DNA of 64,000 nucleotides from an uncultured archaeon (GTDB taxonomy: Archaea; Micrarchaeota; Micrarchaeia; Micrarchaeales; CABMGC01). Location: the NCBI GenBank assembly GCA_963787445.1, contig CAWBCT010000005.1, positions 544,001 to 608,000 of the forward strand, in the 5' to 3' direction. Below the pieces are notes generated by a model. That model saw only the letters and a program-made list of their open reading frames with translations, searched no databases and had not been told where the DNA came from. Position numbers and translations under genes: made by a program. Below, one piece after another: positions 9,246 through 26,553 of the stretch; the stretch's first letter is position 1, and every line of letters begins with the position of its first letter.

Positions 9246-9255
9246 TATTTTGGCA

Positions 9256-9897
9256 ATGGAAATGGATGAGTATTCAGACGAGCAGGCATGGAACCCCAAG
9301 ACAAAGGTAGGAAAGCTAGTGCAGGGGGGCCAGATACGCAGCATCGAGGAGATCTCGGCCAGCGGGAAGACCATCAAGGAGGTGGGCATAGTCGATGCGC
9401 TCATCCCCAAACTTGAGGACAAGGTGCTTGAGATCGCCTCAGTCCAGAGAATGACGAAGAACAAGAGAAGGCAGAAGTTCAGGGTCACCGTGGTGGTCGG
9501 GGACAGGAACGGCCACGTGGGAATCGGAGTGGGCAAGGACCTGGAAGTCAAGCCCGCCATCGAGACCGCGATCAAGGACGCAAAGAGGAATATCATTTCA
9601 ATAACCTTGGGCTGCGGCTCCTGGGAGTGCAACTGCGGGACAAACCACACCCTGCCGCTCACCAGGTCTGCAAAGTGCGGCAGCGTCGCCGTCACGCTTA
9701 AGCCTGCTCCAAGGGGAGTCGGCATAGTCGCCGCGGAGACGATGAAGTCGGTGCTCGAGCTCGCGGGAGTGAAGGACGTCTGGACCTATTCCAGGGGCAG
9801 GACGAGAAACATCTACAACATCTCCATGGCCACCTACGAGGCGCTGAAGAGCGTCGCCGGGATAAAGAACTCGGAAACCCTCAAAGCCCTCCAGTAA
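9256..9897 (+). CDS. rps5: 30S ribosomal protein uS5
   Basis: W.PKTKVGKLV, VVVGD.NGHVG.G, GCGSWEC.C, PAPRG.GIV, GVKDVWT. Confidence 0.96.
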   Translation: MEMDEYSDEQAWNPKTKVGKLVQGGQIRSIEEISASGKTIKEVGIVDALIPKLEDKVLEIASVQRMTKNKRRQKFRVTVVVGDRNGHVGIGVGKDLEVKPAIETAIKDAKRNIISITLGCGSWECNCGTNHTLPLTRSAKCGSVAVTLKPAPRGVGIVAAETMKSVLELAGVKDVWTYSRGRTRNIYNISMATYEALKSVAGIKNSETLKALQ

Positions 9898-9923
9898 TTC
9901 TGATCTGCGCCGCTGAGGATAAT

Positions 9924-9932
9924 CTTATAAAT
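9924..9932 (+). promoter_or_regulatory. TATA box of tRNA-His
   Basis: cttataaat ending ~26 bp upstream of the mature tRNA 5' end. Confidence 0.65.
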
Positions 9933-9958
9933 CAGCTTCGCGTATTACTCCTTGAAGT

Positions 9959-10029
9959 GCCTCAGTGGTGTAGCGGCAGCATAAGGGGTTGTGGACCCCT
10001 AGGTCCGGGTTCGACCCCCGGCTAAGGCC
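9959..10029 (+). tRNA. tRNA-His (GTG)
   Basis: GCCTCAG/CTAAGGC acceptor stem, anticodon arm AGGGG-TT-GTG-GA-CCCCT, T-arm CCGGG-TTCGACC-CCCGG, C discriminator, CCA not encoded. Confidence 0.93.
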
Positions 10030-10080
10030 TTCTCTCACTCAATCTTAAAAACCTTCCCATTCTATTAGATATGTGATAAA

Positions 10081-10476
10081 ATGGCAAAGAAGACTAAAGA
10101 AGTAGCGCCCAAGCGCCCCTGGCTTTCATTCGCTTTCACCTTCGTTGGTAGCGTCATCTTTCTAGGAGTAGTGTCCATGAGCAGCCTGCTGCTCAACGGC
10201 TCCACGAGCCTATGGCAACCTCTGCTTTATTCTGCGGCGATAATCGGCTCACTTGTGGTCTTTGTAGGAAACATCGTAAACCTGGCCTGCCCGGGCTCCT
10301 TCCCGGGAAGGAAGCTCGCAAAGGTCGGGCTGGTCACCGGCTTCAGCCTTATTGCGCTGACCTTCGCGCTGGCAAACCCGACTGTCTTCTCGCTCTCTGT
10401 CCTGGGCTTCCTCCTGGTGTTCTTTGGAAGCTCGATGGCTTCGCGCTGCGGTTGTGAATGCGGCTGCTGCGAGTAA
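10081..10476 (+). CDS. Small 4-TM membrane protein with Cys-rich C-terminal tail
   Basis: Four hydrophobic segments; ends SRCGCECGCCE; resembles ORF 34416-34787. Confidence 0.8.
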   Translation: MAKKTKEVAPKRPWLSFAFTFVGSVIFLGVVSMSSLLLNGSTSLWQPLLYSAAIIGSLVVFVGNIVNLACPGSFPGRKLAKVGLVTGFSLIALTFALANPTVFSLSVLGFLLVFFGSSMASRCGCECGCCE

Positions 10477-10555
10477 GTTCCGAGTCGCCTGTCTTTTTGA
10501 CCTCTTCCAGCTAGTTTTACCAAAGCCATAAAAATCTAAACTGTAATGCAGTACC

Positions 10556-12232
10556 ATGGCATTGTTCCTCCTTTCCCTAGGCGCCGTTGATGCGCTGGCT
10601 CCAGTGCTGGTCATCATCGTTCTCATAGGCGCCGCAGCGGGGATCACGCGGGGCTTCAGCTTCCTGGACCTGTTCGGGATAAGCACACTGGCCAACATCA
10701 TGGGGCGGAAGACCAAGGCCTCGTTCGCAAAGGGTACGTTCAGCAAGGACATAGTGCAGGCGCCGTTTGGAGGCCCAAGGGGAGGCAAAAAATTTAGCGT
10801 CCCTTTGAATAAAGGCGCGGCCCAGATTGGAGGCGCCCAGGCTCCAAAGGGAGGCAAAAAAGCAACAAAGTTTAGCCCTGTTAAAAACCTTCTTATGCCC
10901 AGCCCGGTGGTGAGCGGCATACCTGGATATCTTTTCACCAAGTCCAAAGCAACCGGCACGAACGTCAAAACAGCCTATAGCAGGACCAAGCAGGCAAGGA
11001 AAGCAGCCGGCAAGCGGGTCTCCACCGCGTACAAGAGCGCCCCGGGCATGTTCGTCAACCGGCGCGGCAGGGCAGCCTTCAGCGAGGCCTACAACAAGGC
11101 AAGCAAGACGACCGCAACCGCAGCGGGCAAGATGGCCTACGATAGGGCAACCCGCATAGCCAAGAGTCCGCACCCTGCAAAGTTGGCCACGCGCTATGCA
11201 AGGCGCGCAATATACAAGAGCGGTTTCAGGCGCCCCGGGTTCACCGAGCGGGTTGTGCGACGCGGTGTCCACCAAACCAAGCAGAAGGTCGCACAGAAGG
11301 CCGGTGAATACCACGCCGGCTACGTAAATTACGCGAAAAGAAACGCAACCCCACCAAAGCTGAAACCCCACCAGCGCGTAACGCTTAACCAGATCCGGCA
11401 AAGGAGCCCGGCCAAATCCTCCGCATCCCCCTCTCCGCCGCCATACCTTGAGCCACCGCCGGCTACCCCGCTAGCGGCTGCGGCGGTAACTGCAGGGGCC
11501 GCCGTAGCTGGGGCTCCAAAGCCAGACTGGAAGAACTACGAAGCCTACTTCCAGGGGTCTGATGGAATTGCCACACCACAAGCTCCGGGAATCAGCACCC
11601 AGGAGATGGTGGGTGCGCTTTGCGCCAGTAAAGAGAACTTTGAGAATCTTTACGCTGGGAAGCAGTTTATACAATTTGGAAGCCCTACCACCGGCGACGC
11701 CGAGGGCGGGTTCAAGGTGCACATCCGTGTAAGCGATAGTGATTACGAAAAATTTGCCATGGAGTACCTGCCCAGCCTCGCCCAGCAGGCAGAGAAGAAC
11801 AAGATAGATTTCAAGATAGTTGGATCCAAAGGCGAGAAGGCCTTCTCTGTGGACAACTGCCTTGAGCAGGCAGAGGCAGGCGGCAGGGAGGTATCCTCAC
11901 AGGTCGGAAAGATGATAACCATATACGTGCCTGAGAACAAGAGCGAGTTGGTTGCTGACATAGTCAACAACGCAGAGAAGGCGGCCCAGAGGATAAAGCC
12001 AAAGTCAACGCTCCAGGAACTGCGCGACAAGGGCGTAAAGGACCCGAACTCCGTGATGAAGGAGGTTCTGTTGGGCCAGAGCAACATTGTTTCGGTAAGA
12101 TGGTCATCTGATTTCTACGGAAGAGACCACGCGCTTGATGTCAAGGAGAGAAAGGCGGATGCGGCAGACGTGATAAACGCAGATCCCAAGCGCAAGCAGA
12201 TGTTTGACTCGATAAAGAACAAGATAAAGTAA
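10556..12232 (+). CDS. Membrane-anchored protein: N-terminal TM, basic low-complexity region, Pro linker, C-terminal phosphothreonine-lyase-like domain
   Basis: Hydrophobic N-terminus, K/R/A-rich middle, SPSPPPYLEPPP linker; C-terminal motifs GFKVHI, IDFKIV and QVGKMITIYVP resemble the LanL/LanKC lyase and OspF/SpvC-type fold. Confidence 0.6.
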   Translation: MALFLLSLGAVDALAPVLVIIVLIGAAAGITRGFSFLDLFGISTLANIMGRKTKASFAKGTFSKDIVQAPFGGPRGGKKFSVPLNKGAAQIGGAQAPKGGKKATKFSPVKNLLMPSPVVSGIPGYLFTKSKATGTNVKTAYSRTKQARKAAGKRVSTAYKSAPGMFVNRRGRAAFSEAYNKASKTTATAAGKMAYDRATRIAKSPHPAKLATRYARRAIYKSGFRRPGFTERVVRRGVHQTKQKVAQKAGEYHAGYVNYAKRNATPPKLKPHQRVTLNQIRQRSPAKSSASPSPPPYLEPPPATPLAAAAVTAGAAVAGAPKPDWKNYEAYFQGSDGIATPQAPGISTQEMVGALCASKENFENLYAGKQFIQFGSPTTGDAEGGFKVHIRVSDSDYEKFAMEYLPSLAQQAEKNKIDFKIVGSKGEKAFSVDNCLEQAEAGGREVSSQVGKMITIYVPENKSELVADIVNNAEKAAQRIKPKSTLQELRDKGVKDPNSVMKEVLLGQSNIVSVRWSSDFYGRDHALDVKERKADAADVINADPKRKQMFDSIKNKIK

Positions 12233-12298
12233 CCGTCGGCTCTGCAACTAGCACGACAGCTTGCATACATTTATATCAATAACGCAGTAAATACTTTC

Positions 12299-13534
12299 AT
12301 GCAAAGAAGCGCAGTAATTAGTGCACTGTTTCTGATGGCTCTTCTTTCCGTAAGCGTGCTGCACGCCCAGTCCTGCCCGCCACCCGCCGCTTCCACCTAC
12401 GCAACCGCATTGTCCAGCTCCACTTCCGGCATCGCGGTCGCAGCCTCGGCCATCGCGCTTATGGTCTCCTTCGCGGTGGTGGGCACGGGGTACATCGTAA
12501 GCAAGCTCTTTCCATCTGCAGGCCTCAGCCGCTGGCTGCAGAACGAGTACAAGGAGATTGCCAAGACGGCGATCCTGATAGTCGTCATATTCTCCGTGAT
12601 AGCCATAGTAAGCAACGTGGCGCTTCTGCTTACCGGCGCGCAGGGAGGGACGAGCTATGTCTCAAACCTGGGCGCGCTTACAACCCAATCCGAGCAGTAT
12701 CTCTGCACCGTAAATGCCAATGTCATCAGCGGACTGACAGCCATGACGGACCTGGAACTGGGCTACGGGCTTCTCAACAGCATAAGCATAACCTACTCTG
12801 GGTTTCCCATCCCTCCAGTGCCGCTTCCCCCTGCATTCTTCTGGGTGCCTGTTTTTAAGTCCGGAGCCTCGTTCACACTTCTAAAGAACGACTTTCTGAA
12901 CGTGCTCACTGCGCCAGGTCAACCGCCCTCACTGATGACGGATATCATAACCCTGATATACTTCCCGGTTGTCAACCTGTACACCGTGCAGATAACTTTG
13001 CTGCCGTTCCTAATATGGATAGGCATAGTAGTGCTAATTCCCATGGGCCTGGTGCTGCGTGCCTTGCCGTTGGTTCGCGGCCTCGGCGGGACCCTGGTGG
13101 CGTTGGGGCTGCTGTTTGCCCTGATCTGGCCGTCTATCCTGGTTCTTTTCAATGCACCAATCACCAATTATTTCTACAATGTGCTCAATTTGCAAATCGT
13201 GACCCCGCATGCGGCCTGCACCTCGTTCGGGAGCTCGATCTTCGCTCCAATCTGCACGGGCCTTAGCTCGTTTTTCACCTCGTTCGGAGGATTCCTTACC
13301 CCGGTCACCAATGCTGCCGGCACCGCCGTCGCTTCCGAAGCCATCTCGCTCTCCACCCTATTCTCGATATACCCGGCGCTCAACTACATCCTCGCCTGGA
13401 CGATCTACCCCATCTTCCTTCTTTTCTTCCTATTAATATTTGACCTGCTGATAGCGTACACGATAACCGACAACATCGCCAGGCTGCTGGGCGGCTCGGT
13501 GCGTCTCTCCATAGGCAAACTCAAGCTGATATGA
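12299..13534 (+). CDS. CedA/VirB6-like multi-pass membrane protein, paralog 1 of 6
   Basis: Signal peptide (VLHA-Q), TM plus LSRWLQNEYKEIAK, GLVLRALPLVRGLGGTLVA...IWP, C-terminal IARLLGG. Confidence 0.65.
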   Translation: MQRSAVISALFLMALLSVSVLHAQSCPPPAASTYATALSSSTSGIAVAASAIALMVSFAVVGTGYIVSKLFPSAGLSRWLQNEYKEIAKTAILIVVIFSVIAIVSNVALLLTGAQGGTSYVSNLGALTTQSEQYLCTVNANVISGLTAMTDLELGYGLLNSISITYSGFPIPPVPLPPAFFWVPVFKSGASFTLLKNDFLNVLTAPGQPPSLMTDIITLIYFPVVNLYTVQITLLPFLIWIGIVVLIPMGLVLRALPLVRGLGGTLVALGLLFALIWPSILVLFNAPITNYFYNVLNLQIVTPHAACTSFGSSIFAPICTGLSSFFTSFGGFLTPVTNAAGTAVASEAISLSTLFSIYPALNYILAWTIYPIFLLFFLLIFDLLIAYTITDNIARLLGGSVRLSIGKLKLI

Positions 13535-14772
13535 TGGATCTAACCCTCCTCTTCCAAACGGTGCAGGCCTGTTCCCCCTCGGCACTGAACGTGAACAACT
13601 GGATAGGCATAAACGTGCTCGTTGTGCTTGCGTTTCTGGGAGTCGCCTCATTCATCTACGCGACCAGCAACCTGATGTCGAACACCTACCGCGAGCGGGT
13701 CCGCAAGATACTGCGCGGCGAGTACACCGAGTGCATGATAAGCATCTTCCTCATAACCTCGCTCATAACGATCAGCTACGCCTCGTGCAACATCGGCGCC
13801 AGCCTCTCCGGCCTCGGTAGCAACTACCAGAACGTCTTCCAGGCGGACAACTACTACATCGGCACGCTCCTGTTCTCAAAAGGCACCGGCATAGTCTCCG
13901 GGCTGATAACCCAGGGGCTCTTCCTCTCCATTGACGGCCTGATCGCAAATCAGGTGCTTTCCTCGTATAACGCCTACATCAACAACCAGCTCCCTAATGA
14001 GGGGACCATAGCAGGCACACCCAATCCGCAGGTGGGACAGCCGGCCTACGCGATTGAGGCCGAATACGATGGCGATATCTACACCGTATACAACTCCTAC
14101 GCCGATGTATACACCACCTATGCTGGGTTCATAGTCCTGGGCTTCGGGGTGCTCTTCGTCCTCTTCTTCATGCTCCCCATAATAAGTTCCACCGCTCTTG
14201 TCCTGCTCGTTCCTGTCGCGATAATAATGCGTTCCCTGGCATTCTCCGGGCCCAAGCTCCGCGAGGCCGCGAACGCGCTTCTGGCCCTCTCCATCGCGCT
14301 TTACTTTGTCTTTCCACTGGCAATCTCCATGAACGGGTACGTAGTGAGCTGGGTGTACTGCACCCAGAGCCCCTACCAGTTGTCTGTGGCGAATGCCCCG
14401 TCCGCGCCGTCGACCTCGTGCAACCCATACCCCCAGTACGTAAGCGCCTACGCAATCAACAGCATACCGATCTCGACGTTCTTCGCGCAAAACGCGATCT
14501 CGGAGTACAACTCCGGCGCGCTCCAGAGCAACTTCCTCGGCGCCGCAAACCTGGGGACCGGAAACATAGTGAATACGGTCACAACCCTTGTACAGGGGCT
14601 TGTCGGACTGCCCTCCCTGATCTCCAATTACACCAACCAGGTTGCCGAGTACCTGTTTGAGTGCGTGGTGCTTGTCGCGCTGGACTTCGCGATAACCATG
14701 GGCTTTGCCCAAAGTCTTTATAAGGGCCTGAACTCCATCTCAGGAGTGCTCGGCGCGGGTTCGTTCTGGTGA
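13531..14772 (+). CDS. CedA/VirB6-like membrane protein, paralog 2
   Basis: VRKILRGEYTE, IIMRSL...LREAANALLALSI..Y.VFP, C-terminal SGVLG; ATGA overlap with the previous gene. Confidence 0.62.
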   Translation: MMDLTLLFQTVQACSPSALNVNNWIGINVLVVLAFLGVASFIYATSNLMSNTYRERVRKILRGEYTECMISIFLITSLITISYASCNIGASLSGLGSNYQNVFQADNYYIGTLLFSKGTGIVSGLITQGLFLSIDGLIANQVLSSYNAYINNQLPNEGTIAGTPNPQVGQPAYAIEAEYDGDIYTVYNSYADVYTTYAGFIVLGFGVLFVLFFMLPIISSTALVLLVPVAIIMRSLAFSGPKLREAANALLALSIALYFVFPLAISMNGYVVSWVYCTQSPYQLSVANAPSAPSTSCNPYPQYVSAYAINSIPISTFFAQNAISEYNSGALQSNFLGAANLGTGNIVNTVTTLVQGLVGLPSLISNYTNQVAEYLFECVVLVALDFAITMGFAQSLYKGLNSISGVLGAGSFW

Positions 14773-14773
14773 T

Positions 14774-16201
14774 ATGACAATGCAAAAGAGCTTCCTCATT
14801 GTGCTGGCTGCGCTCCTCGTGGTGAGCGTCTCGGCCCAGACCTACCCGATCGCAACAAACATCTCCTACTTCACGCAGTGGCTTCCCGTGGTCGTCCTGG
14901 CGGTCATGCTCAGCATAGGGATAGTCGTAGGATACTACCTGCTCGGGATGCTGCTGAACAACAGCCAGATGCGTTCCGGGGCCATCAACGAGTTCAGCAA
15001 TGTGATATTCACAATTGTGATTGTGGTCATAATCCTGGCTATATTCAACTTCATTGGCAACGCCGCCTACGCCACCGCGGTCATCCCCAGGTCTGTTCCC
15101 CAGTCCATCTGCAATACGCTCCAGAACGCGAACCTCAACTTCATAAGCACGAGCACCCAGTACAACTCGCCGGCCGAGCAGATCTGCGCCTCCCTGATAA
15201 ACAACAATGCCGGGGCAGGCCTCACCCCAAACATAGACTACCCTCTCGCATCCACCTACCTGATCATTGCCAACCTCACCAACCAGAGCGTCACCAACCT
15301 GAATGCGGTGTATGTCTTTGGCAGTTACATAAACTTTCTGGGGAGCTTCGTTGCGACGGACAGCATCTGCGTGCCCAATGAGACCTGCCTTTTGGGAACC
15401 TTTGGATCAGAGGCTGTGGGCTTTACGGCGATTGTCAGCTTTTCCCCATTTGCAGGAGAGACAAGCGTCGCCTACACCATGCGCGCGTTCACTACCCAGT
15501 CCACGCTCATCTTCACCTCCTTCATGCTGCAGCTGATCGGCATAATCGTGATGCTTTTCATGTGGCCGTACCTGCTTGCTGCTGGGATCATACTGCGCTC
15601 CACCTTCCTGACGCGCAGGCTGGGCGGCCTCCTCATCGCCATCTGCATAGGCGGCCTGCTGGTTTTCCCGCTGGTCTTCCTTGCCCAGTACGCCGGGCTG
15701 ACAAACGCCAACCTGGTGCCCATAGGCTCAAACACCTTCAACTCCATGAACTCAAACGCGATACCCATCCTGGCCATCAACGGCTTGGACAACAACGGCA
15801 ATCTCGTAGTCTACAACTCCAACTCGATCAACTTCTACGTCTTCCCCCGCGCAGATTACGCCATCCACGCCGCCGGATGCTGGCCCCATGTCGACCTGCT
15901 CACCCAGGAGCTTGCAATCGTCACCACCTACATAGCTCCGGGCTACGGCCTAGCCGTTGGGCTGTCGAATTTGGCCGGCAGCCTTGGGAGCTTTACCACA
16001 ACTGCCCTGCTGCCCACCAGCTGCAACACTGCAGCCTCGATAAACTCGCTTTACGCCCTTGCAAACATCTACGGCATCATGTCCATAATAGGAATATTCT
16101 TCCCCCTGATGGACCTGCTGATCGGGATCTCCGCAATCATCGGGATCTCGGACCTGATCGGAGGCTCCACCTCGCTGATCGGCTTGGAAAGGTTGTTATG
16201 A
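14774..16201 (+). CDS. CedA/VirB6-like membrane protein, paralog 3
   Basis: Signal peptide, MRSGAINEFSN, GIILRSTFLTRRLGGLLIA...VFP, C-terminal ISDLIGG. Confidence 0.65.
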   Translation: MTMQKSFLIVLAALLVVSVSAQTYPIATNISYFTQWLPVVVLAVMLSIGIVVGYYLLGMLLNNSQMRSGAINEFSNVIFTIVIVVIILAIFNFIGNAAYATAVIPRSVPQSICNTLQNANLNFISTSTQYNSPAEQICASLINNNAGAGLTPNIDYPLASTYLIIANLTNQSVTNLNAVYVFGSYINFLGSFVATDSICVPNETCLLGTFGSEAVGFTAIVSFSPFAGETSVAYTMRAFTTQSTLIFTSFMLQLIGIIVMLFMWPYLLAAGIILRSTFLTRRLGGLLIAICIGGLLVFPLVFLAQYAGLTNANLVPIGSNTFNSMNSNAIPILAINGLDNNGNLVVYNSNSINFYVFPRADYAIHAAGCWPHVDLLTQELAIVTTYIAPGYGLAVGLSNLAGSLGSFTTTALLPTSCNTAASINSLYALANIYGIMSIIGIFFPLMDLLIGISAIIGISDLIGGSTSLIGLERLL

Positions 16202-16202
16202 T

Positions 16203-17459
16203 ATGAAAAAACAATTGGTCGCCTTTGTCTTTCTGTTCCTTCTTCTGGGTAGCATCTATGCCCAGAACATCCCAGTTACCACCTCCGCGCCCTCCGGCAC
16301 CACCTCTTCCAGCACATCTCAACCTTATTGCACAGACCTCTTTACAAACTCGAACAGCCTCGTCAGCAATGCCCTGTACAACCCGTCCACCTACGGCAAC
16401 CTAAACATCCCGGGCAGCCTCATGGCGATCTCGTTCCTTATAATCATGGCGGTGCTCCTCACGATCTCCCTGGTATACGGGATAGGGATAGGCTTCGGCA
16501 TAGACTCCTTCGTGAGGTTCGCACGAAGCGAGTACCTCGAATCGTTCTTCAATATCATCATCCTGCTGCTCATAATAGGCGGCATAGTGTTCGCCAACTG
16601 GCTGCCCACCTTCTTTAACGACATCACGTCCGTGAGTCTGCCTGCCGCGGCAGCCCTGCCTACGACAACTGCGGGCAGCACCAACTCCGTATCGGCGGGC
16701 GTGTACACCGCGATATGCAACAACATCATCTCGAACCAGGTAATTCCCTCGCTTGGCGTATTTGTCTTGTCCACAACAATCGAAAATACGTACAAGGCCG
16801 TAGCCAGCCTATCCATCGTGATTATTCCTCCGACATTTCTGCCGTCATTCTCAATCAAACCTTTCTCAGGCCTCTCCGCAAACCTGGCCTTTGTCTCTGA
16901 GCAGGTGGGCGTAATCTTCGTCGTGCTGGGCATTGACGCATCCGTGATCTTCCTGCTGTTCATAATCTACTTCCTGTTTCCAATCTACCTTTATCTCGGA
17001 ATAGTCCTCCGCTCCTTCCCGTGGACTAGGGCGGCGGGCGGCACCTTCATCGCCATCTTCATCGCATTTTACATAGTCTTCCCGGCGATACTGTACCCAT
17101 TCACAACGGCCACCAGAAGCACAAGCACCGGCTCCGGCCTATGCCAAACCGGCGCCAGCAGCGGCACAAACTACTGCCTGACTCCTGTCACCAGCCTCTC
17201 CTCCTTCATCACCACCGCCTTCTCCGTGCTCAATAACCAGGGAGGCGGCACGGTCTCGGGAGGGGCTTCAACACTGATCCAAAGCTTTGGTCTCACCGGC
17301 ACAATCGCCATATACACTGCGGCGATTGCATTCTTTGTCGAGACGCTGGCGGGGATATTCATCGCCTACCTTGTCTCCTACGAACTGCTTGAGATGCTCG
17401 GCGACGTGCTGGGAGCGCCGTCTCTAAATGCCAACAGTCTCATAAGGGGGATAATATGA
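16203..17459 (+). CDS. CedA/VirB6-like membrane protein, paralog 4
   Basis: Signal peptide (IYA-Q), FVRFARSEYLE, GIVLRSFPWTRAAGGTFIA...FYIVFP, C-terminal LGDVLG. Confidence 0.65.
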   Translation: MKKQLVAFVFLFLLLGSIYAQNIPVTTSAPSGTTSSSTSQPYCTDLFTNSNSLVSNALYNPSTYGNLNIPGSLMAISFLIIMAVLLTISLVYGIGIGFGIDSFVRFARSEYLESFFNIIILLLIIGGIVFANWLPTFFNDITSVSLPAAAALPTTTAGSTNSVSAGVYTAICNNIISNQVIPSLGVFVLSTTIENTYKAVASLSIVIIPPTFLPSFSIKPFSGLSANLAFVSEQVGVIFVVLGIDASVIFLLFIIYFLFPIYLYLGIVLRSFPWTRAAGGTFIAIFIAFYIVFPAILYPFTTATRSTSTGSGLCQTGASSGTNYCLTPVTSLSSFITTAFSVLNNQGGGTVSGGASTLIQSFGLTGTIAIYTAAIAFFVETLAGIFIAYLVSYELLEMLGDVLGAPSLNANSLIRGII

Positions 17460-18550
17460 TCTTCTTCGCAAGCATAATACCGGCGCTCGTCTTCCTCCAG
17501 ACCAGCTGCGTGAGCAGCATCAGCAGCTTCCTCACCGCGCCCTACACGAGCTGGTTTCCGATCGCAGCGCTTGCGGTGCTCGCCTTCACCGGCATCGTCC
17601 TGGTAATCTACATGCTCGGCCCGCTTCTCGGAGACAGCGGAAACATAAGGGCCTGGTCGCGCATGAAGTTCTACGAGCTCATCACCTCACTCATCCTGAT
17701 AATCATCTTCGCAGCCATGGCCACCAGCATCTGCACCGTAGACCCCACGAGCGCGCTCGGCAGCGTAGGATTAATCTCCTCATCGTGCTCATCGGGCACG
17801 GGCAACAACATATACTCGATCTCGCTTTGCGACCTCTACACCTTCAACACCTACGTGCTGAACTTCAATGAGCTCCTGTACCTTGTGCAGGTGCGGTTCA
17901 GCACCTCGCTCTCATACACCTACACCTTTAAGTTCAATGTCGGCGGAAACCTCAACCAGAAAAGCAGCGTCAGCTTAGGTCCGATCGGCTTCGGCCCGTC
18001 GGTCGGCCTCGCAGTCGGCGGAGGCGGCGGCCTGGGAGACTTCGGGCTGTACGCGGTGCCCATAATATACACATTCATCCTGCTGAACCAGCTCCAGCTT
18101 CTCCTGCTCGCGGTAGCGCCGCTGATCTTCGCCGTCTTCATGGCGATAGGTCTCATCTCGCGCGCCTTCGGCTTCGCCCGCTCCTTCGGAGGCGCGATGA
18201 TCGCCTTCGGGCTCGGGATAGGCCTGATCTATCCCCTTCTGATAGCCGTGAACTACGGCTTCCTGGATTACGCGCTGGAGCACGTCTCCGCCCTCGGGAC
18301 CGCGGCGCTCGCCCCGATCATAGCCTATCCGGTTGCCACCTACGTGGCGATGGCCGTACAGTACTTCACCGGCGCATCGCTCCTTTCATTCATCCCGGAG
18401 TACCTCTTCGCCTACATCGGCCTGATATTCATCGGCATAGTCTTTATGGATGTTTTTAACCTTGTGATACTTGACACGTTTGTAACGGAGTTCTCCCAGG
18501 CGATTGGGGACCGCATCAGCTTCCTCTCGCTGCTCGAGAACGTGCTATGA
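17456..18550 (+). CDS. CedA/VirB6-like membrane protein, paralog 5
   Basis: IRAWSRMKFYE, GLISRAFGFARSFGGAMIA...IYP, C-terminal FSQAIG; ATGA overlap. Confidence 0.65.
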   Translation: MIFFASIIPALVFLQTSCVSSISSFLTAPYTSWFPIAALAVLAFTGIVLVIYMLGPLLGDSGNIRAWSRMKFYELITSLILIIIFAAMATSICTVDPTSALGSVGLISSSCSSGTGNNIYSISLCDLYTFNTYVLNFNELLYLVQVRFSTSLSYTYTFKFNVGGNLNQKSSVSLGPIGFGPSVGLAVGGGGGLGDFGLYAVPIIYTFILLNQLQLLLLAVAPLIFAVFMAIGLISRAFGFARSFGGAMIAFGLGIGLIYPLLIAVNYGFLDYALEHVSALGTAALAPIIAYPVATYVAMAVQYFTGASLLSFIPEYLFAYIGLIFIGIVFMDVFNLVILDTFVTEFSQAIGDRISFLSLLENVL

Positions 18551-18559
18551 GTTGAACCT

Positions 18560-19639
18560 ATGAAACTGCTTGCTGTTTTGATCGCGCTCGCCTCGCTCGG
18601 GCTGTTCACGGTAGGCGCCCAGAGCAGCAGCATCTGCAGCTCTACGAGCAGCAGCGTAATCTACCAGTACGCCCCCTGGTACTGCAGCCAGGCGAACCAG
18701 GCGATCGCGAACTACTGGGTCCAGTACGAGCCCATCGCCTTCCTGGCCATCCTCCTCTCGTTCTCGGTCGCGGTGCTGCTCTTTGCGATCAGCGCCTTCC
18801 TGCGGAGTGAGAGGCTGAGGAACTTCGCTGTTGGTGAATTTTACGAAGCCGCCGCGACCACCCTGATAGTCGTCGCCTTCCTCTTCGTCACTGCCGTCAT
18901 CGTTGGCCTCCTGCCCTCCCTCATACTCGCCAATACGAACCCATACGTCAGCTCGCTCAACTACATAAGCGGAACCATAACCTCCACCCAGGGTCTCATC
19001 ACCCAGATGCTCCAGATCACCATAGCCGACAAGTACTACGCGAGCCTCAACCTTCAACTGTGCTCCCCCATAGTGTCGGACACCACCTGCATCAGCAACC
19101 TCCTGGGCTACCTCACTCCCGCAATAACCGTATGGTTCGTGGTGCCGGCGCAGACCATAAGCGCCCTGATGTTTGACGGTGTGATGCTCCTCTACGGCGA
19201 GTTCTACCTTATAATGATCATGATGTACGCCGCAATCCCGGTCTTCCTCATACCAGGGATAATCTTCCGCGCGATACTACCGCTCCGCAACCTCGGAGGG
19301 ATGATGATCGCCATAGCGATCGGTGGCTTCGTGATCATGCCCACCCTCTTCTCCGTGGCCTTCTACTTCACCAACACCGCCCTGCAGGGCCAGATCGCAT
19401 CCACCACGGCGTCGCTCGCCAGGTACGGAACCGGGAGCGGTGCCCAGCTGAATGCAATCTCGCAGCAGTCGCCGCTGGTGCAGACGCTCGGGCAGATAAA
19501 CACCAGCCTCAGCGCGTTCTGGATGTCCGTCCTTTTCTATCCTTCGCTGATCTTCGCGCTGACCTACATTTTCATAACCGAAACCGCCAAGTTTATAGGG
19601 GGTGCCACGAAGTTCTCCGGAAGGCTCAGGATTGTTTGA
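18560..19639 (+). CDS. CedA/VirB6-like membrane protein, paralog 6
   Basis: Signal peptide (VGA-Q), LRNFAVGEFYE, GIIFRAILPLRNLGGMMIA...IMP, C-terminal AKFIGG. Confidence 0.65.
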   Translation: MKLLAVLIALASLGLFTVGAQSSSICSSTSSSVIYQYAPWYCSQANQAIANYWVQYEPIAFLAILLSFSVAVLLFAISAFLRSERLRNFAVGEFYEAAATTLIVVAFLFVTAVIVGLLPSLILANTNPYVSSLNYISGTITSTQGLITQMLQITIADKYYASLNLQLCSPIVSDTTCISNLLGYLTPAITVWFVVPAQTISALMFDGVMLLYGEFYLIMIMMYAAIPVFLIPGIIFRAILPLRNLGGMMIAIAIGGFVIMPTLFSVAFYFTNTALQGQIASTTASLARYGTGSGAQLNAISQQSPLVQTLGQINTSLSAFWMSVLFYPSLIFALTYIFITETAKFIGGATKFSGRLRIV

Positions 19640-19708
19640 GCCACTCGCCATAGCTAAAAAGATTAGTGTTGTATCCATATAGGTGCTCCTCTGGCTCTTA
19701 AAACGCAG

Positions 19709-20524
19709 ATGCTGTTGTTTCTCATACTCGCCAGCGCCTCGCTGGTCTGCGCCATAGTTCCATTCGTAATAAGCAACTTCGCCATCGACTTCTTTCTCGC
19801 GCTGCTCGCATTGCTGCTTGCGATAATCGCCTTCTCCACCAAATACTACACCTACCTTTACATCCCCGCGACCAGGATGAAGAACCGGAACATCGTCGTA
19901 AGTTCGGCAGAGCCCTACTTCGTCTCGCCTTCGGGAACCTCCATAGTGATAAGGGATGAGAACGGCACCTACGCCACCTCGTTTGTAAACATCCCGATGT
20001 ACCGCTCCGGCACCGAGATGACCGCCGCCGAGAAGCTGGACATCGCAAGGATGTTCAGCCGGATGCTTACGGTGACCAAGAGCACTGTCAAGTTCTCCTC
20101 CGAGCTCTACATGGTCAGCAAGGACGAGTACATAGCCCAGATTAGAAAGAGGCTCGAGCAGGCGGAGGAGCGCCTGCACAATCTCACTCCCTCCGACCCC
20201 AAGCAGCGCTCGCCGCAGGCCGATCGGGTGAAGGGAGAGACCCAGATGTGGCACAACCTGCTGAACAGCATAAGCGGCTCAAAATCCGAGTCGCTGATGT
20301 CCTACGCGATGGTGAGCGCCTTCGGCGGGAACGAGGAGGAGGCCTCCAACATAGCCTACCAGCGCGCCGAGGAGCTCGCCGCCGGAATAAGCTCCGTGTT
20401 CGGGATCTCAGCCTATGTGATCAAGGGTGATGAGATGCTCAAGCTGATCGAGCCGGAGTACATGATCCCTGTCGAGACCGTGAACGAGATGATCAGGCAG
20501 AAGAGCATAGAGGAAGGAATATAG
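19709..20524 (+). CDS. 2-TM anchored soluble protein, VirB4/TraC N-terminal-domain-like, paralog A
   Basis: Two N-terminal TMs, then YATSFV, KFSSELY, a coiled-coil hairpin and YAMVSA.G.NEEEA...EEL. A possible in-frame CTG start at 19691 follows a GGTG SD. Confidence 0.55.
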   Translation: MLLFLILASASLVCAIVPFVISNFAIDFFLALLALLLAIIAFSTKYYTYLYIPATRMKNRNIVVSSAEPYFVSPSGTSIVIRDENGTYATSFVNIPMYRSGTEMTAAEKLDIARMFSRMLTVTKSTVKFSSELYMVSKDEYIAQIRKRLEQAEERLHNLTPSDPKQRSPQADRVKGETQMWHNLLNSISGSKSESLMSYAMVSAFGGNEEEASNIAYQRAEELAAGISSVFGISAYVIKGDEMLKLIEPEYMIPVETVNEMIRQKSIEEGI

Positions 20525-20531
20525 TGATTCC

Positions 20532-21356
20532 ATGGATGAACAAACCGTAATGTATCTTGCATTCTCTGCAATCTCGATACTGATAATCCTGCTGGGTCTC
20601 GCGAACTACGGCCCCCTTGGCTCTGTTGTGGCTCTGCTCGCCGTAATAGCACTCGTATTTATCCTGCTGCTCAACTACGCCGACTTCCTGATCTTTCCCG
20701 CGGTGACGCGCATTCTTGGGGTAACCATAACCCTTTCAAAGGGCAACACGGCGCCCAAGGAGCAGAATAGGGTGGTGAAGTACGCGAACGGGCTGTACTA
20801 CGCCACCGGCTACCTCACGGCGAACATCTACAACTACGTATTCCGCCAGGAGTCCATACTCCAGCAGGACGACCAGATGATGGCCTCTGCGCCTGACAAA
20901 TGGGAGCGGATAGTCATGAACGTCGACTTCCCCTTCAAGTTCAGCATGATCTCCAATCCGCAGGACATACAGAAGTACAGGGAGGACCTGGAGGGCGACC
21001 GGGGCTACTACGAGTTCCAGCTCTCGAAGCTGGCGGGCTCCAGCGCGCCGAGCCAGATGCAGATGGACAGCCTGCAGCGCCAGATAAACATAGTGCAGGC
21101 GCGAATCGACCGCATCTCCGGCGGCGAGCTGCCGATAAACGCGCTTATGTACATCGAGACCACGGCTGTGGGAGTGAGCGACAAGGCCGCCGCAGACGCG
21201 CTGACCAACCAGCTCAACAAGCTCCAGACCGTGTTCAACGCCTTTGACCTGAACATAATCCGCATCGTCGGAAGGGAGGTGCACACGCTGCACAAGCTGA
21301 ACTACTTCCTCTTCGACCCGACGGACATGCAGAAGCTGTTCAACATGCAGAAGTAA
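20532..21356 (+). CDS. 2-TM anchored soluble protein, VirB4/TraC N-terminal-domain-like, paralog B
   Basis: Same layout as 19709: YATGYL, KFSMIS, coiled coil, YIETTA.G.SDKAA...NKL, I.GREV. Confidence 0.55.
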   Translation: MDEQTVMYLAFSAISILIILLGLANYGPLGSVVALLAVIALVFILLLNYADFLIFPAVTRILGVTITLSKGNTAPKEQNRVVKYANGLYYATGYLTANIYNYVFRQESILQQDDQMMASAPDKWERIVMNVDFPFKFSMISNPQDIQKYREDLEGDRGYYEFQLSKLAGSSAPSQMQMDSLQRQINIVQARIDRISGGELPINALMYIETTAVGVSDKAAADALTNQLNKLQTVFNAFDLNIIRIVGREVHTLHKLNYFLFDPTDMQKLFNMQK

Positions 21357-21397
21357 CCCGCTTGAAGATTTTTAAGCTTATACGTCATTGTATAATC

Positions 21398-22900
21398 ATG
21401 ACGCTAGTGCGCATCCAAACTCTGATGAGCAACGAGGCCGCTAAGCGCCTCTTCCTCACAAGGCCCCCGGAGCCTCCGTTCGAGTTTCTGCTTAACGACC
21501 CGACCAACTCGATCTTCATAGGCGTGACCAAGCTGTTCAAGGTGCCGTTCACCTGGTCCTCATCGCAGCTCACGAACCCGCATATCTCGGTGGTGGGAAT
21601 AACCGGATCGGGAAAGAGCTTCTTCGTAAAGACCTTCCTGACCAGGGCGAGCTACGTCTGGAACACCAACGCGATAATAATCGACTGGGCGGGAGAGTAT
21701 CTCTCCTGGGTAAAGCAGAGCGGCGGTGTGGTCGTCTCCTTCTCCCGCGGGGACTACATGAATATAATGGACCTGTCGGGCATGAAGCCGATTGACCGCG
21801 CAAAGCAGATCATGAACTCGCTGGACATACTCACGGACATCGCCGACTTTCCTGAACAGCGAAGACTCACTGCCGAGGCGATAGAGCAGGCCTACGTGAA
21901 CACCGGCTTTGCCCTGGCTGCGGTGCCTGCGCCCAACCGCGAGGCCCCAACGCTGAAGGAAGTAACGCACCTGCTTGAGGAGAAACTGCAGGAAGGCACC
22001 TACGCCTATCCCGCCGAGCTCGAAAATACGATCTACCGCCTAAGGCAGTTCTCAAGGGAGGGGGAGGACTACTTTGCCAACAAGAGCACCATCGACATAG
22101 GCAAGCTCTCAACGTCGGGCCTTGTGGACCTTGACCTTTCCGGCCTGCCCGACGAGCGTTTCCGCGCCATGGCAGCCCTGTTCATACTCCAGACACTCAA
22201 GGAGAAGATGAGGATGGAGGGCTGGAGCGCCACGGCTGGCATCAAGACCTTCGTCGTCCTTGACGAGGCCTGGAAGGTCGCGAGCGACGAGCGCAGCGAC
22301 GCGGTCACGATAATCAGGGAGGGCCGCAAGTACCAGTTCGGCCTCATTGTCGCCTCTCAGAACCCGACAGACGTAAACGAGGCGATCTTCTCCAACGTCG
22401 GCACGACCTTCATGCTCCGCATCCGCTTCGAGAAGTTCATGAATTATCTCCAGGGCTCGCTAAACTTCTCGGACTTCATACGCGGAGAGATAGGCAAGTT
22501 CGGAGTGGGCCAGGCGGCTGTCGACATGGCATTCAACACCAGCGTCAGGTTTCCAAACGTCTTCATACTGGAGCGGGTTGTGGGCGAGCTGCCGCTCGAT
22601 ACCTACATAATCTTCCTCACCGAGGTCCTTGACCAGAAGGAGCTTCAGGACCCCGCCGTTGTCAAGGAGTACTCGTTCGACAAGATAAACCTGAGCTCAA
22701 AGATGATCGAGAGCGGGATCGGCTCCGAGATAATAACAAAGTCGCTCGAAGCCATAACGACCGGCGGAAAGACCATAGACGTGAAGAACTTCGTAAAGTT
22801 GCTGACCGGGCTGGGCGTGAGCAACGAAACGATCGTAAACCTGCTGCGCAGCATAGGGCTGCTGGACCCGCTGATAACCCGCATCCTGGGCCAAATGTGA
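21398..22900 (+). CDS. VirB4/HerA/CedB-like (FtsK-HerA superfamily) ATPase
   Basis: NPHISVVGITGSGKS (Walker A), IIIDWAGEY, VVLDEAW (Walker B), REGRKY.FGLIVASQNP (Arg finger and Q sensor); ATG at 21398 after TATA-like ttttaag. Confidence 0.9.
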   Translation: MTLVRIQTLMSNEAAKRLFLTRPPEPPFEFLLNDPTNSIFIGVTKLFKVPFTWSSSQLTNPHISVVGITGSGKSFFVKTFLTRASYVWNTNAIIIDWAGEYLSWVKQSGGVVVSFSRGDYMNIMDLSGMKPIDRAKQIMNSLDILTDIADFPEQRRLTAEAIEQAYVNTGFALAAVPAPNREAPTLKEVTHLLEEKLQEGTYAYPAELENTIYRLRQFSREGEDYFANKSTIDIGKLSTSGLVDLDLSGLPDERFRAMAALFILQTLKEKMRMEGWSATAGIKTFVVLDEAWKVASDERSDAVTIIREGRKYQFGLIVASQNPTDVNEAIFSNVGTTFMLRIRFEKFMNYLQGSLNFSDFIRGEIGKFGVGQAAVDMAFNTSVRFPNVFILERVVGELPLDTYIIFLTEVLDQKELQDPAVVKEYSFDKINLSSKMIESGIGSEIITKSLEAITTGGKTIDVKNFVKLLTGLGVSNETIVNLLRSIGLLDPLITRILGQM

Positions 22901-22904
22901 TGAG

Positions 22905-23210
22905 ATGGCGCAATCAACCAACAACGTATCCGTCAAGAAGCTGGACCTCAAGAAGATGGTCACCTCGCTCGGGATAAGCGACGCGAGCACCGAGTCCCTG
23001 CTTGCCCGCCTGGACAAGATGCACAAGCACGTGGACGCGGTGAGCTTTGTCGGAATGCTGGAGAAGCTCGGCATAAAGCAGAAGGACATCGCAAACATAC
23101 TCAGGCGGATAGGCCTGAACGACACCTCCATAGTCGAGATATTCAACATGCTGGACGAGGAGAAGATTGAGGAGACCTTTGGCAAGATAATGCACCTGAG
23201 GGTGGAATGA
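22905..23210 (+). CDS. Small helical protein homologous to the C-terminal module of the upstream ATPase
   Basis: VDAVSFVGMLEKLGI...IANILRRIGLND aligns with IDVKNFVKLLTGLGV...IVNLLRSIGLLD of the ATPase. Confidence 0.8.
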   Translation: MAQSTNNVSVKKLDLKKMVTSLGISDASTESLLARLDKMHKHVDAVSFVGMLEKLGIKQKDIANILRRIGLNDTSIVEIFNMLDEEKIEETFGKIMHLRVE

Positions 23211-23569
23211 TGAAACAAAAAAACGTTTGCGTAGTTTGCGGCAAGGAGAAGAACGGGCTGGAGGTAAAGACGGACAACGTGATAAGGACGATACGCTACA
23301 TCAAGCTCAAGCTGTTCCGCAAGGTCAGCAACAACCGCCTGGTGGTGTGCAAGGAGTGCTACGAGAATTACAAGAAGTACAGGAAGAAGTATATCGGAAG
23401 GCAGAGATTGTACGTGGCACTGGGCGTGCTCTTCCTGATCTTCGGTATGCTGCTGAACCCCTCCTTCGTTGCGCTGTTTGTGGGAATTTTCATAACCGTC
23501 GTCATGTACCTGCTGTCCCTGCTAAGCTACCTCCCGGAGATTGACCTGGGCAAGGCGCAGAAGAAGTAA
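23207..23569 (+). CDS. Zn-ribbon protein with two C-terminal TM helices
   Basis: CVVC...CKEC, basic linker, two hydrophobic segments; ATGA overlap with the previous gene. Confidence 0.8.
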   Translation: MMKQKNVCVVCGKEKNGLEVKTDNVIRTIRYIKLKLFRKVSNNRLVVCKECYENYKKYRKKYIGRQRLYVALGVLFLIFGMLLNPSFVALFVGIFITVVMYLLSLLSYLPEIDLGKAQKK

Positions 23570-23577
23570 GTGATGCA

Positions 23578-24060
23578 GTGGTATTTGCAAAAAAGGTCCA
23601 CCACAATGATAACGAGTTGTTGACGAAGATAGAGAACATATTTATTGAAAACAAAAGCAAGAGGGTAGCTGTTGTAGGGACGACCTGCACCGGAAAGTCA
23701 ACCCTAATCCGACAATTAAGAGAGAGGGGAATAATCGTCCATGACATGGACGACCTTGTTTTTCCAAAACTCACGAAGCAGGAAGCAAACGAGGTCAATG
23801 CAACTCCCTGGACGGAAGAGATAGGCAAGTTGATGGACAAGCTCGCGAAGAAGTATGTAAAGGTTGTGGCCGGAGAGCCGGTGTTCGGTACAATCGTATT
23901 CGACTCCGATCTTATAGTACACCTGAAAATAGGTGATCAGAAACTCAAAGAGAGGGTCGCATCAAGAAATGTTAGTTTTGAGAATGCGAAGAACATGCAA
24001 AAGCAGATAGAGGAGCAGATTAAGAAATCAAAGATAGACACTATTGAAATTATTGTCTAG
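23578..24060 (+). CDS. Small P-loop nucleotide-kinase-like protein
   Basis: VAVVGTTCTGKST, DMDD, L.ERVASR lid motif; more AT-rich than its neighbours; start uncertain. Confidence 0.7.
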   Translation: MVFAKKVHHNDNELLTKIENIFIENKSKRVAVVGTTCTGKSTLIRQLRERGIIVHDMDDLVFPKLTKQEANEVNATPWTEEIGKLMDKLAKKYVKVVAGEPVFGTIVFDSDLIVHLKIGDQKLKERVASRNVSFENAKNMQKQIEEQIKKSKIDTIEIIV

Positions 24061-26087: not shown

Positions 26088-26103
26088 GAATAAGGTCGTG
26101 TAT

Positions 26104-26553
26104 ATGAAACATAATGACTCATCTAGGCTAAGACTGCTGGTATTCTTTGGTCTGCTCACAGGCGTATTGGGCAGCTTGGTTGTGCCTTACGCATTCGCGC
26201 AGAACACAAGCGCTCTGACAAATGCGCTCTGCGGCATCGTAAACGGCATAGGAACTGTGCTGAGCATCCTGGCACTGCTTATGTTCATATTGGGCGGCAC
26301 GCTGTACGCATTCGCGCACTTCCTTCCTGCGACTGGTAACTTCAGGGGAAATATGCAGGGCTGGGGAATGGGTATGCTGATGGGCGGGATAATCGCACTT
26401 GTGCTGTACATAATCGCTCCGTTCATAGTCGGGCAGATTATAGGCATAAACAACGCAAACAACAACAACGGCATTAACACTGGCACTGGAAACAATGCAT
26501 CAGTCAATGGCCTCAGCAATGCCACATGCGCAGGCGTAACAGGCACCAGCTAG
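26104..26553 (+). CDS. VirB2/TrbC/CedA1-like pilin
   Basis: Signal peptide ending AFA-Q, amphipathic LTNALCGIVNGI, TM1, loop with R/W (FRGNMQGWG), TM2 ending IIAPFIV, Asn/Gly-rich tail with a second Cys. Confidence 0.6.
   Translation: MKHNDSSRLRLLVFFGLLTGVLGSLVVPYAFAQNTSALTNALCGIVNGIGTVLSILALLMFILGGTLYAFAHFLPATGNFRGNMQGWGMGMLMGGIIALVLYIIAPFIVGQIIGINNANNNNGINTGTGNNASVNGLSNATCAGVTGTS

Follow-up and report, generated by a model that had tools for sequence, protein, structure and literature searches.

A predicted membrane protein of an archaeal VirB4-type gene cluster ends in a phospho-Ser/Thr lyase-like domain

The 64,000-nucleotide stretch of DNA analysed here (the window; bases 544001-608000 of contig 5) comes from the genome of an uncultured archaeon of the Micrarchaeales (assembly GCA_963787445.1; 1.05 Mb in 19 contigs, 82% complete). 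One of its open reading frames (ORFs), at 10556..12232 on the + strand, encodes a 558-amino-acid protein, hereafter the target, that is made up of a predicted transmembrane (TM) anchor, a basic region, a Pro/Ala linker and a lyase-like domain. The reading that we favour, with a probability of roughly 60%, is that a single-copy membrane protein of a VirB4/Ced-like gene cluster has gained, in this species alone, a lyase that removes phosphate from phosphoserine (pSer) and phosphothreonine (pThr) by beta-elimination.

Established phospho-Ser/Thr lyases are either injected virulence effectors of bacteria or parts of kinase-fused lanthipeptide synthetases. The target would represent a third setting, in which the lyase domain is kinase-less, tethered by a membrane helix and joined to a core component of a hitherto undescribed VirB4-type cluster of small-genome archaea. 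Fold and chemistry are already known; what is new is the small sequence family, the kinase-less tethered architecture in an archaeon and the attachment to a VirB4-type cluster protein. A full-text literature search returned no paper combining 'phosphothreonine lyase' and 'DPANN' and, as judged by titles, none on a VirB4-type cluster in Micrarchaeota or DPANN archaea. The domain would provide an assayable handle on the VirB4-type machine, it predicts that phosphorylation is irreversibly erased at the membrane, and it leads on to a Cys-rich tail in the neighbouring gene product and to a possible host target.

Homology of the C-terminal domain to phospho-Ser/Thr lyases

The domain spans residues 345-558 (about 214 amino acids; 11588..12229, + strand), as delimited by an AlphaFold (AF2) model and by structure and profile matches, and has an ordinary composition (pI 7.0). 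An earlier note on this DNA, made from the letters alone, had pointed to the ORF, placed the motif GFKVHI at ~11708 and QVGKMITIY at ~11900, with DFKIV between them, and proposed a phosphothreonine-lyase-like domain. The coordinates proved correct, and the assignment agrees with the profile, the fold and the residues described below.

An exhaustive HMMER pass over 1.84 billion representative proteins (E <=0.001) returned eight proteins, including the target itself. Six are relatives of the lyase domain (P0002-P0006 and P0008; E 3.9e-36 to 3.0e-5, 30-40% identity), and two more (P0009 and P0010) came from a word-index search. The remaining HMMER hit, P0007 (1008 amino acids), is repetitive and aligns as 10 short stretches against query residues 164-193; it was dropped and excluded from all alignments. 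No relative was found in the viral contigs searched.

An alignment of the seven-sequence family (A1), which holds no lanthipeptide synthetase, has G385, K387, H389, Q449, K452, T455, Y457, R515-W-S-S and E531-R532 as invariant positions. When its profile was run against the PDB, nine of the ten matches were class III LanKC proteins (E 0.007-0.13), and GWK-x-H, F-K and GK-x-ITIY aligned residue for residue with ThurKC. In a profile-profile comparison (hhalign) with 12 lyase domains drawn from metagenomic and genomic loci (A4), A1 scored a probability of 98.3% and an E of 1.8e-14 over 93 columns. Of these 12, the 11 that were scanned all exceeded the cut-off of the Pfam model RamC_N; Pkinase was matched above cut-off in five and below it in one, and LanC also in two. 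Within A1 itself, four of the seven members match RamC_N below cut-off, with the nearest relative, P0002, reaching 23.1 bits vs a cut-off of 27. P0002 and P0003 also match the NCBIfam LanL and LanKC models at their lyase ends, and the nearest ESM Atlas clusters are annotated RamC_N and VRP3. Since the target's motifs are near-invariant in a wider alignment (A2; 21 sequences, comprising nine family members and 12 of RamC_N type), and since the family-only profile matches RamC_N-type domains, these motifs are beyond chance.

The structural comparisons point the same way. AlphaFold with the A2 alignment gave a model with a predicted local distance difference test score (pLDDT) of 86.9 and a predicted template modelling score (pTM) of 0.86. 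Searching it with Foldseek, a check that the earlier note had proposed, placed class III LanKC chains at ranks 1-12 (best E 5.5e-6), followed by SpvC, VirA, OspF, HopA1 and LxmKY, with SpvC/OspF-type chains at E 2e-3 to 2e-2. VIA-align, which is independent of Foldseek, compared the model with 48,161 chains and returned ThurKC (Z 13.8 over 169 amino acids), CuvL (11.7), SalKC (11.7), SpvC (10.3 over 156 amino acids), LxmKY (7.2) and HopA1 (6.6); next after these lyases came eIF4E (Z 6.0) and BLES03 (1ztp; Z 5.8), both described in the part of PMC4159009 used here as sharing the lyase fold without the lyase residues. Taken together, homology of the C-terminal domain to the OspF/SpvC and LanKC/LanL phospho-Ser/Thr lyases is well supported, and the domain is nearer the LanKC type than SpvC.

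A conserved set of putative catalytic residues

The residues on which lyase chemistry would depend lie in four + strand motifs. GFKVHI (11708..11725, starting at G385) contains K387 and H389, which align with ThurKC K65/H67 and SpvC K104/H106; DFKIV (11807..11821, starting at D418) contains K420, at the position of the catalytic base (ThurKC K94, SpvC K136); QVGKMITIY (11900..11926, starting at Q449) contains K452, at the position of ThurKC K117 and SpvC R148, and Y457, equivalent to SpvC Y158; and RWSS (12098..12109) contributes R515, aligned with the YRYG Arg of LanKC-type domains (ThurKC R163, SpvC R213). The ThurKC/SpvC equivalences, namely K65/K104, H67/H106, K94/K136, K117/R148, D152/D201, R163/R213 and R191/R220, follow an excerpt of PMC10604976, and Y158 figures as the Tyr supporting the base in the portion of PMC4159009 consulted.

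Conservation across A2 is high. K387, H389, Q449, K452, T455 and Y457 are present in all 21 sequences and K420, which aligns with IEFK of ThurKC, in 20. R515 is found in 9/9 family members and in 10 of the 12 RamC_N-type sequences. E503 occupies the acidic column (ThurKC D152, SpvC D201), which is Glu in six and Asn in three of the nine family members and Asp or Glu in 11/12 RamC_N types. R532, in a column with no RamC_N counterpart, is conserved in 9/9 family members and is a candidate for the last Arg (SpvC R220, ThurKC R191). The putative catalytic set thus comprises K387, H389, the base K420, K452, Y457, R515 and the acidic position E503. If roles carry over from SpvC and ThurKC, K420 would abstract the alpha proton with support from K387 and Y457, H389 would protonate the leaving phosphate, and K452 and R515 would hold it. 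The product would be dehydroalanine or dehydrobutyrine, an irreversible change.

Among the reference proteins compared with the target, the lyase domains of LanKC/LanL (ThurKC, PDB 8SAM/8SAP; CuvL, 8CAR; SalKC, 9UGQ; Pfam PF25816, RamC_N) are its best fold match (Z 13.8, 11.7 and 11.7) and its best profile match. They share with it GWK-x-H, F-K and Q/S-x-GK-x-ITIY, the YRYG-type Arg is kept as R515, and the Lys K452 stands where SpvC has Arg148. In contrast to LanKC/LanL, the target has no fused kinase (Pkinase) or cyclase (LanC) domain, has a longer stretch after the ITIY strand with RWSS-x-F and E-R motifs of the family's own, is missed by the RamC_N model, and is archaeal and carried on a membrane helix by a basic leash of about 290 amino acids. 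OspF, SpvC and VirA (PDB 2Q8Y, 2P1W, 3I0U and 3BO6; Pfam PF03536, VRP3) have the same compact alpha/beta fold, counterparts of the target's K-x-H pair, base Lys, Tyr and Arg, and likewise no fused kinase. However, the target has no VRP3 sequence match and is predicted to be membrane-anchored, unlike these soluble injected proteins.

The lyase-like domain is fused to a predicted membrane anchor

The N-terminal module, residues 1-52 (10556..10711), was delimited by hydropathy and by its conservation in related genomes. It contains a single strong hydrophobic helix at residues ~3-31 (mean of 2.2-2.55 in a 19-residue Kyte-Doolittle window) and a weaker hydrophobic segment at residues 33-50 (mean <=1.1), with the motif AAAG-x-TRG (here AAAG-I-TRG) between them. 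Two regions recognised by composition follow, both on the + strand. Residues 53-295 (10712..11440) form a low-complexity region rich in K, R, A, G and T, whose 243 residues include 31 Lys, 21 Arg and 36 Ala as against two Asp and three Glu (net charge +47, pI 11.6). Residues 296-344 (11441..11587) form a Pro/Ala-rich linker with nine Pro and 13 Ala among its 49 residues. The AF2 model starts within this linker, at residue 329, and its first 15 residues have a pLDDT <50.

The fusion is no assembly accident, because a close variant has the same architecture and a contig from a public run bridges the junction. The variant (P0021) is 99% identical over the same 558-residue architecture, and its three substitutions all lie in the basic region. 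The contig is 957 bases long and matches 10898-11854 at every base, running from the basic region through the linker into the first part of the lyase domain; the public run it comes from may represent the source sample. A protein identical to the target (P0001) is present on two contigs. Two further runs (X5 and X6) gave only fragments, none of which bridges the junction between basic region and lyase. In another public assembly, a frameshift near residue 99 (window ~10850, in a G/A-rich run) splits the gene into products of 106 and 445 amino acids (P0022 and P0020); it may be an assembly error or a real variant.

The target is a single-copy protein of a conserved VirB4-type cluster

The target gene lies in a 13-kb VirB4-type cluster (within window 9250-24060) that begins directly after rpS5 of a ribosomal-protein operon. 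It is preceded by a gene for a membrane protein of 131 amino acids (10081..10476, + strand) with about four hydrophobic segments as judged by eye and an end reading GSSMASRCGCECGCCE. Downstream, again on the + strand, are six tandem polytopic membrane paralogs of 411, 413, 475, 418, 364 and 359 amino acids (12299..19639), two conserved proteins without an assigned family (271 and 274 amino acids; 19709..21356), which have orthologs in two related genomes (G002 and G021), and a VirB4/HerA-type ATPase of 512 amino acids (21362..22900; Pfam DUF87 at 1.2e-14, AAA_10 and the TraG P-loop). The NCBIfam matches of the ATPase are all far below cut-off; they include the VirB4-like CD1110 (7.9e-19), CedD (2.9e-18), CedB (1.4e-15) and also TraC.

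Genomes of the same genus show the order found here, with rpS5, the small membrane protein, the target ortholog and the first polytopic paralog in succession. G002, G022 and G039 all retain the six paralogs without rearrangement, and G002 keeps the whole cluster through to the ATPase. In G021 the ortholog has moved, yet it remains within the cluster, between the sixth paralog and the 271-residue gene. This synteny shows that the target belongs to a conserved VirB4/Ced-like cluster. The earlier note had described the protein as membrane-tethered and as heading a secretion-like locus, and both statements are supported.

The N-terminal module (the first ~50-100 residues) is matched in 32 of 41 related genomes, a tally that includes G038, and in 20 of 28 genera, with one match per genome in all 32 and open frames of 313-988 amino acids. 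The tails that follow it cannot be aligned with one another, but all 19 that were measured are basic (pI 9.3-10.6; net charge of the first 100 amino acids +5 to +23). Of 25 orthologs searched with Pfam, two proved to end in a DnaJ domain, one to have LRV repeats and 22 to have no Pfam domain, so that a conserved N-terminus with exchanged C-termini, for which the earlier note had proposed a test, is seen in a weak form. (A word-index search with residues 1-75 of the target had retrieved only two orthologs, too few for such a survey.) The DnaJ-ending orthologs are found in two other genera, at L031:2428-4866 in G032 (1.4e-17) and L039:2426-4057 in G033 (1.6e-09).

A search of 201 genomes of the order, by comparison, recovered the lyase domain from the archaeon's own genome alone. 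The sole other match, in G026 (E 0.005), is spurious; it falls in a MoxR ATPase sharing 58% identity with a MoxR encoded in the window. Composition gave no clear signal of a recent transfer: GC at third codon positions (GC3) is 0.673 in the domain, 0.698 in the remainder of the gene and 0.69-0.82 across the cluster. Stand-alone RamC_N-type proteins of 220-320 amino acids are encoded in three of the 200 other genomes (G112, G190 and G134). They are kinase-less, as the target is, but differ from it in that they belong to another subfamily (GYKLHVNVS, QQGKLLTIY, SYRY) and are detected by Pfam RamC_N; inspection by eye further indicates no TM segment, an additional domain at the C-terminus and a location outside the VirB4 cluster. 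G134, a complete genome of 1.2 Mb, has three such genes (L079-L081; C1:80412-81573 and 360142-360387), two of them in tandem beside what appears by eye to be a transposase-like ORF.

Compared with the archaeal Ced and Ted VirB4 systems and with bacterial type IV secretion systems (T4SS), the locus has in common a VirB4-type ATPase, polytopic membrane proteins encoded in tandem and a pilin-like gene. It differs in having six membrane paralogs and in that all family scores are far under cut-off. No described Ced, Ted or T4SS component is known to consist of a TM helix and a long basic tail.

A proposed cytoplasmic lyase held at the membrane

According to the positive-inside rule, the basic flank of a TM helix stays in the cytoplasm. 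The tail of the target is predicted to be cytoplasmic because its strong helix is directly followed by a K/R-rich flank. J domains, for their part, work with Hsp70, which is encoded in all three genomes checked, including those of both J-domain carriers; the DnaJ-ending orthologs would thus represent an Hsp70 co-chaperone tethered to the same cluster protein. Since the ortholog tails are basic and the J-domain carriers encode Hsp70, the lyase most likely faces the archaeon's own cytoplasm; that is, the helix is most likely oriented N-out/C-in, with the basic leash and the lyase on the same, cytoplasmic side. The notion that the J-domain orthologs are forced to rely on a host Hsp70 is weakened by the same 3/3 genomes.

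Among the lyase-domain relatives, five of eight end in a hydrophobic anchor and lack an N-terminal signal. A further case comes from a 301-kb metagenome contig (L020:5737-9618), which encodes a kinase-less protein of 1293 amino acids with a RamC_N lyase domain (3.4e-30); in order, it consists of Zn ribbons, RamC_N, a Gly/Pro linker, Zn ribbons, a long hydrophobic region, apparently polytopic when inspected by eye, and a large C-terminal part. Because five of the eight relatives are anchored, and given the L020 architecture, membrane tethering of a cytoplasmic lyase appears to recur.

These results suggest a model whereby a leash of ~290 residues, ~100 nm when fully extended, would keep the lyase close to the membrane machine. 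There it would remove phosphate from pSer or pThr of a membrane-proximal protein, the phosphate having been supplied by a separate kinase.

Several observations weigh against this model. Searches with the single target sequence found no domain match in Pfam, in PDB sequences (phmmer) or in NCBIfam, and a word-index search returned only the target itself. VRP3 (PF03536) was not among its Pfam matches even at E up to 10, and RamC_N (PF25816) matched neither the target nor anything else in its own genome. AlphaFold run on the single sequence gave a poor and unusable model (pLDDT 46.1), and the input alignment of the good model contained RamC_N-type domains, which introduces circularity; the family-only profile results are free of it, because A1 holds no LanKC. 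The gathering of the K/H/K/Y residues in one pocket is deduced from the alignment to ThurKC and not from distances, and the acidic position, Glu in the target, is Asn in three of nine family members. No protein kinase is encoded in the window, and elsewhere the genome has three Pkinase-like ORFs (193-264 amino acids) that score below cut-off. Finally, given the moderately hydrophobic residues 33-50, the N-terminus may form a hairpin that leaves the tail outside.

Alternative explanations

The alternative that survives best, although we consider it unlikely, is that the target is a translocated effector: the whole protein or a released C-terminal part would leave through the VirB4-type machine, and the lyase would irreversibly inactivate phosphoproteins of a host, much as OspF and SpvC irreversibly inactivate MAP kinases. 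Such a role would fit a gene that lies within a secretion-like cluster and combines a conserved N-terminus with a highly variable C-terminus and occasional folded additions (DnaJ in 2/25, LRV in 1/25 and the lyase here). It would also fit the restriction of the lyase domain to one of 201 genomes, the sporadic occurrence of stand-alone RamC_N proteins in the order (3/200 other genomes, one with three copies) and the fact that the solved stand-alone members of the fold among the structure matches are bacterial injected effectors. However, each of the 32 genomes that match the N-terminal module has one copy of it, hence there is no multi-cargo family, and 22 of 25 orthologs have no recognisable cargo domain. 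The strong TM helix and basic flank predict a retained protein that faces the cytoplasm, the genomes with J-domain orthologs have an Hsp70 of their own, and the VirB4-type machine has neither a known processing site nor a known secretion signal. The earlier note's description of an effector or polymorphic cargo therefore finds no support in the single-copy module, the predicted cytoplasmic tail or the Hsp70 genes.

The genome size is consistent with a host-dependent lifestyle of the DPANN type. We regard it as rather improbable that the archaeon uses its conjugation-like machine to deliver the lyase, and other lineages theirs to deliver the J domain, into an archaeal host, where Ser/Thr phosphorylation would be irreversibly erased. 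If true, a host-directed lyase would be an archaeal counterpart of OspF/SpvC virulence, and no effector would have been assigned to the machine before it.

It is very unlikely that the domain serves a non-catalytic purpose, binding phosphoproteins or another ligand, as eIF4E binds caps, with no elimination of phosphate. The shared fold of eIF4E and BLES03 (Z 5.8-6.0), the alternation of Glu and Asn at the acidic position within the family and the failure to find a kinase partner would be in keeping with such a use. Nevertheless, the base Lys, the K-x-H pair, the Tyr and the Arg are invariant in the family, and the lyases stand far above eIF4E in the structural comparison (Z 10.3-13.8 vs 6.0).

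A lanthionine-type cross-linking role, in which the lyase would dehydrate pSer in the tail of the upstream protein, GSSMASRCGCECGCCE, so that nearby Cys add and form thioether links, is the most doubtful of the alternatives: the lyase (1/201 genomes) and the Ser-plus-Cys-rich tail (1/30 homologs of the small protein) are species-specific C-terminal additions to adjoining genes, the domain is closest to the lyase domains of lanthipeptide synthetases, and the tail is predicted, from segments assigned by eye, to lie on the cytoplasmic side with the lyase, but the genome (82% complete) yielded no LanC-like cyclase, the target has no fused or neighbouring kinase, a CxCxCxCC tail might just as well serve for metal binding or acylation, and two coincident gains in one genome amount to a single observation.

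Neighbouring genes and further observations

The Cys-rich tail of the 131-residue protein (ending SRCGCECGCCE) is peculiar to it among 30 homologs (one row of which comes from G038); the other 29 have 0-3 Cys in total. The tail and the lyase are two species-specific gains in adjoining genes. It had been remarked in the earlier note that no kinase, cyclase or precursor peptide is visible nearby. This stands for the kinase, in the window, and for the LanC cyclase, in the genome at 82% completeness; for the precursor it overlooked the Cys-rich upstream tail.

A candidate VirB2-type pilin of 151 amino acids, which has two hydrophobic helices in addition to a signal peptide, is encoded at 26098..26553 (+ strand), 3 kb downstream of the ATPase and behind housekeeping genes. 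Its match to PF18895, T4SS_pilin, is under cut-off (E 0.0013; 19.2 bits against 26.6). The N-terminal module of the target had also been considered as a VirB2-type pilin and was rejected; its second segment is too weakly hydrophobic and the product of 26098-26553 is the better candidate. By these features, that product is likelier to be the pilin of the cluster than is the target N-terminus.

The cluster is followed, at 23578-24060, by a gene for an AAA_28/AAA_18 P-loop protein, nucleotide-kinase-like. Genes for TFIIB, Rpb4/RpoF and DUF655 within the window are archaeal markers. Lastly, inspection by eye of 10520-10555 revealed an A/T-rich box, ATAAAAAT, that ends ~24 bases 5' of the target's ATG and may represent an archaeal TATA box giving rise to a leaderless transcript.

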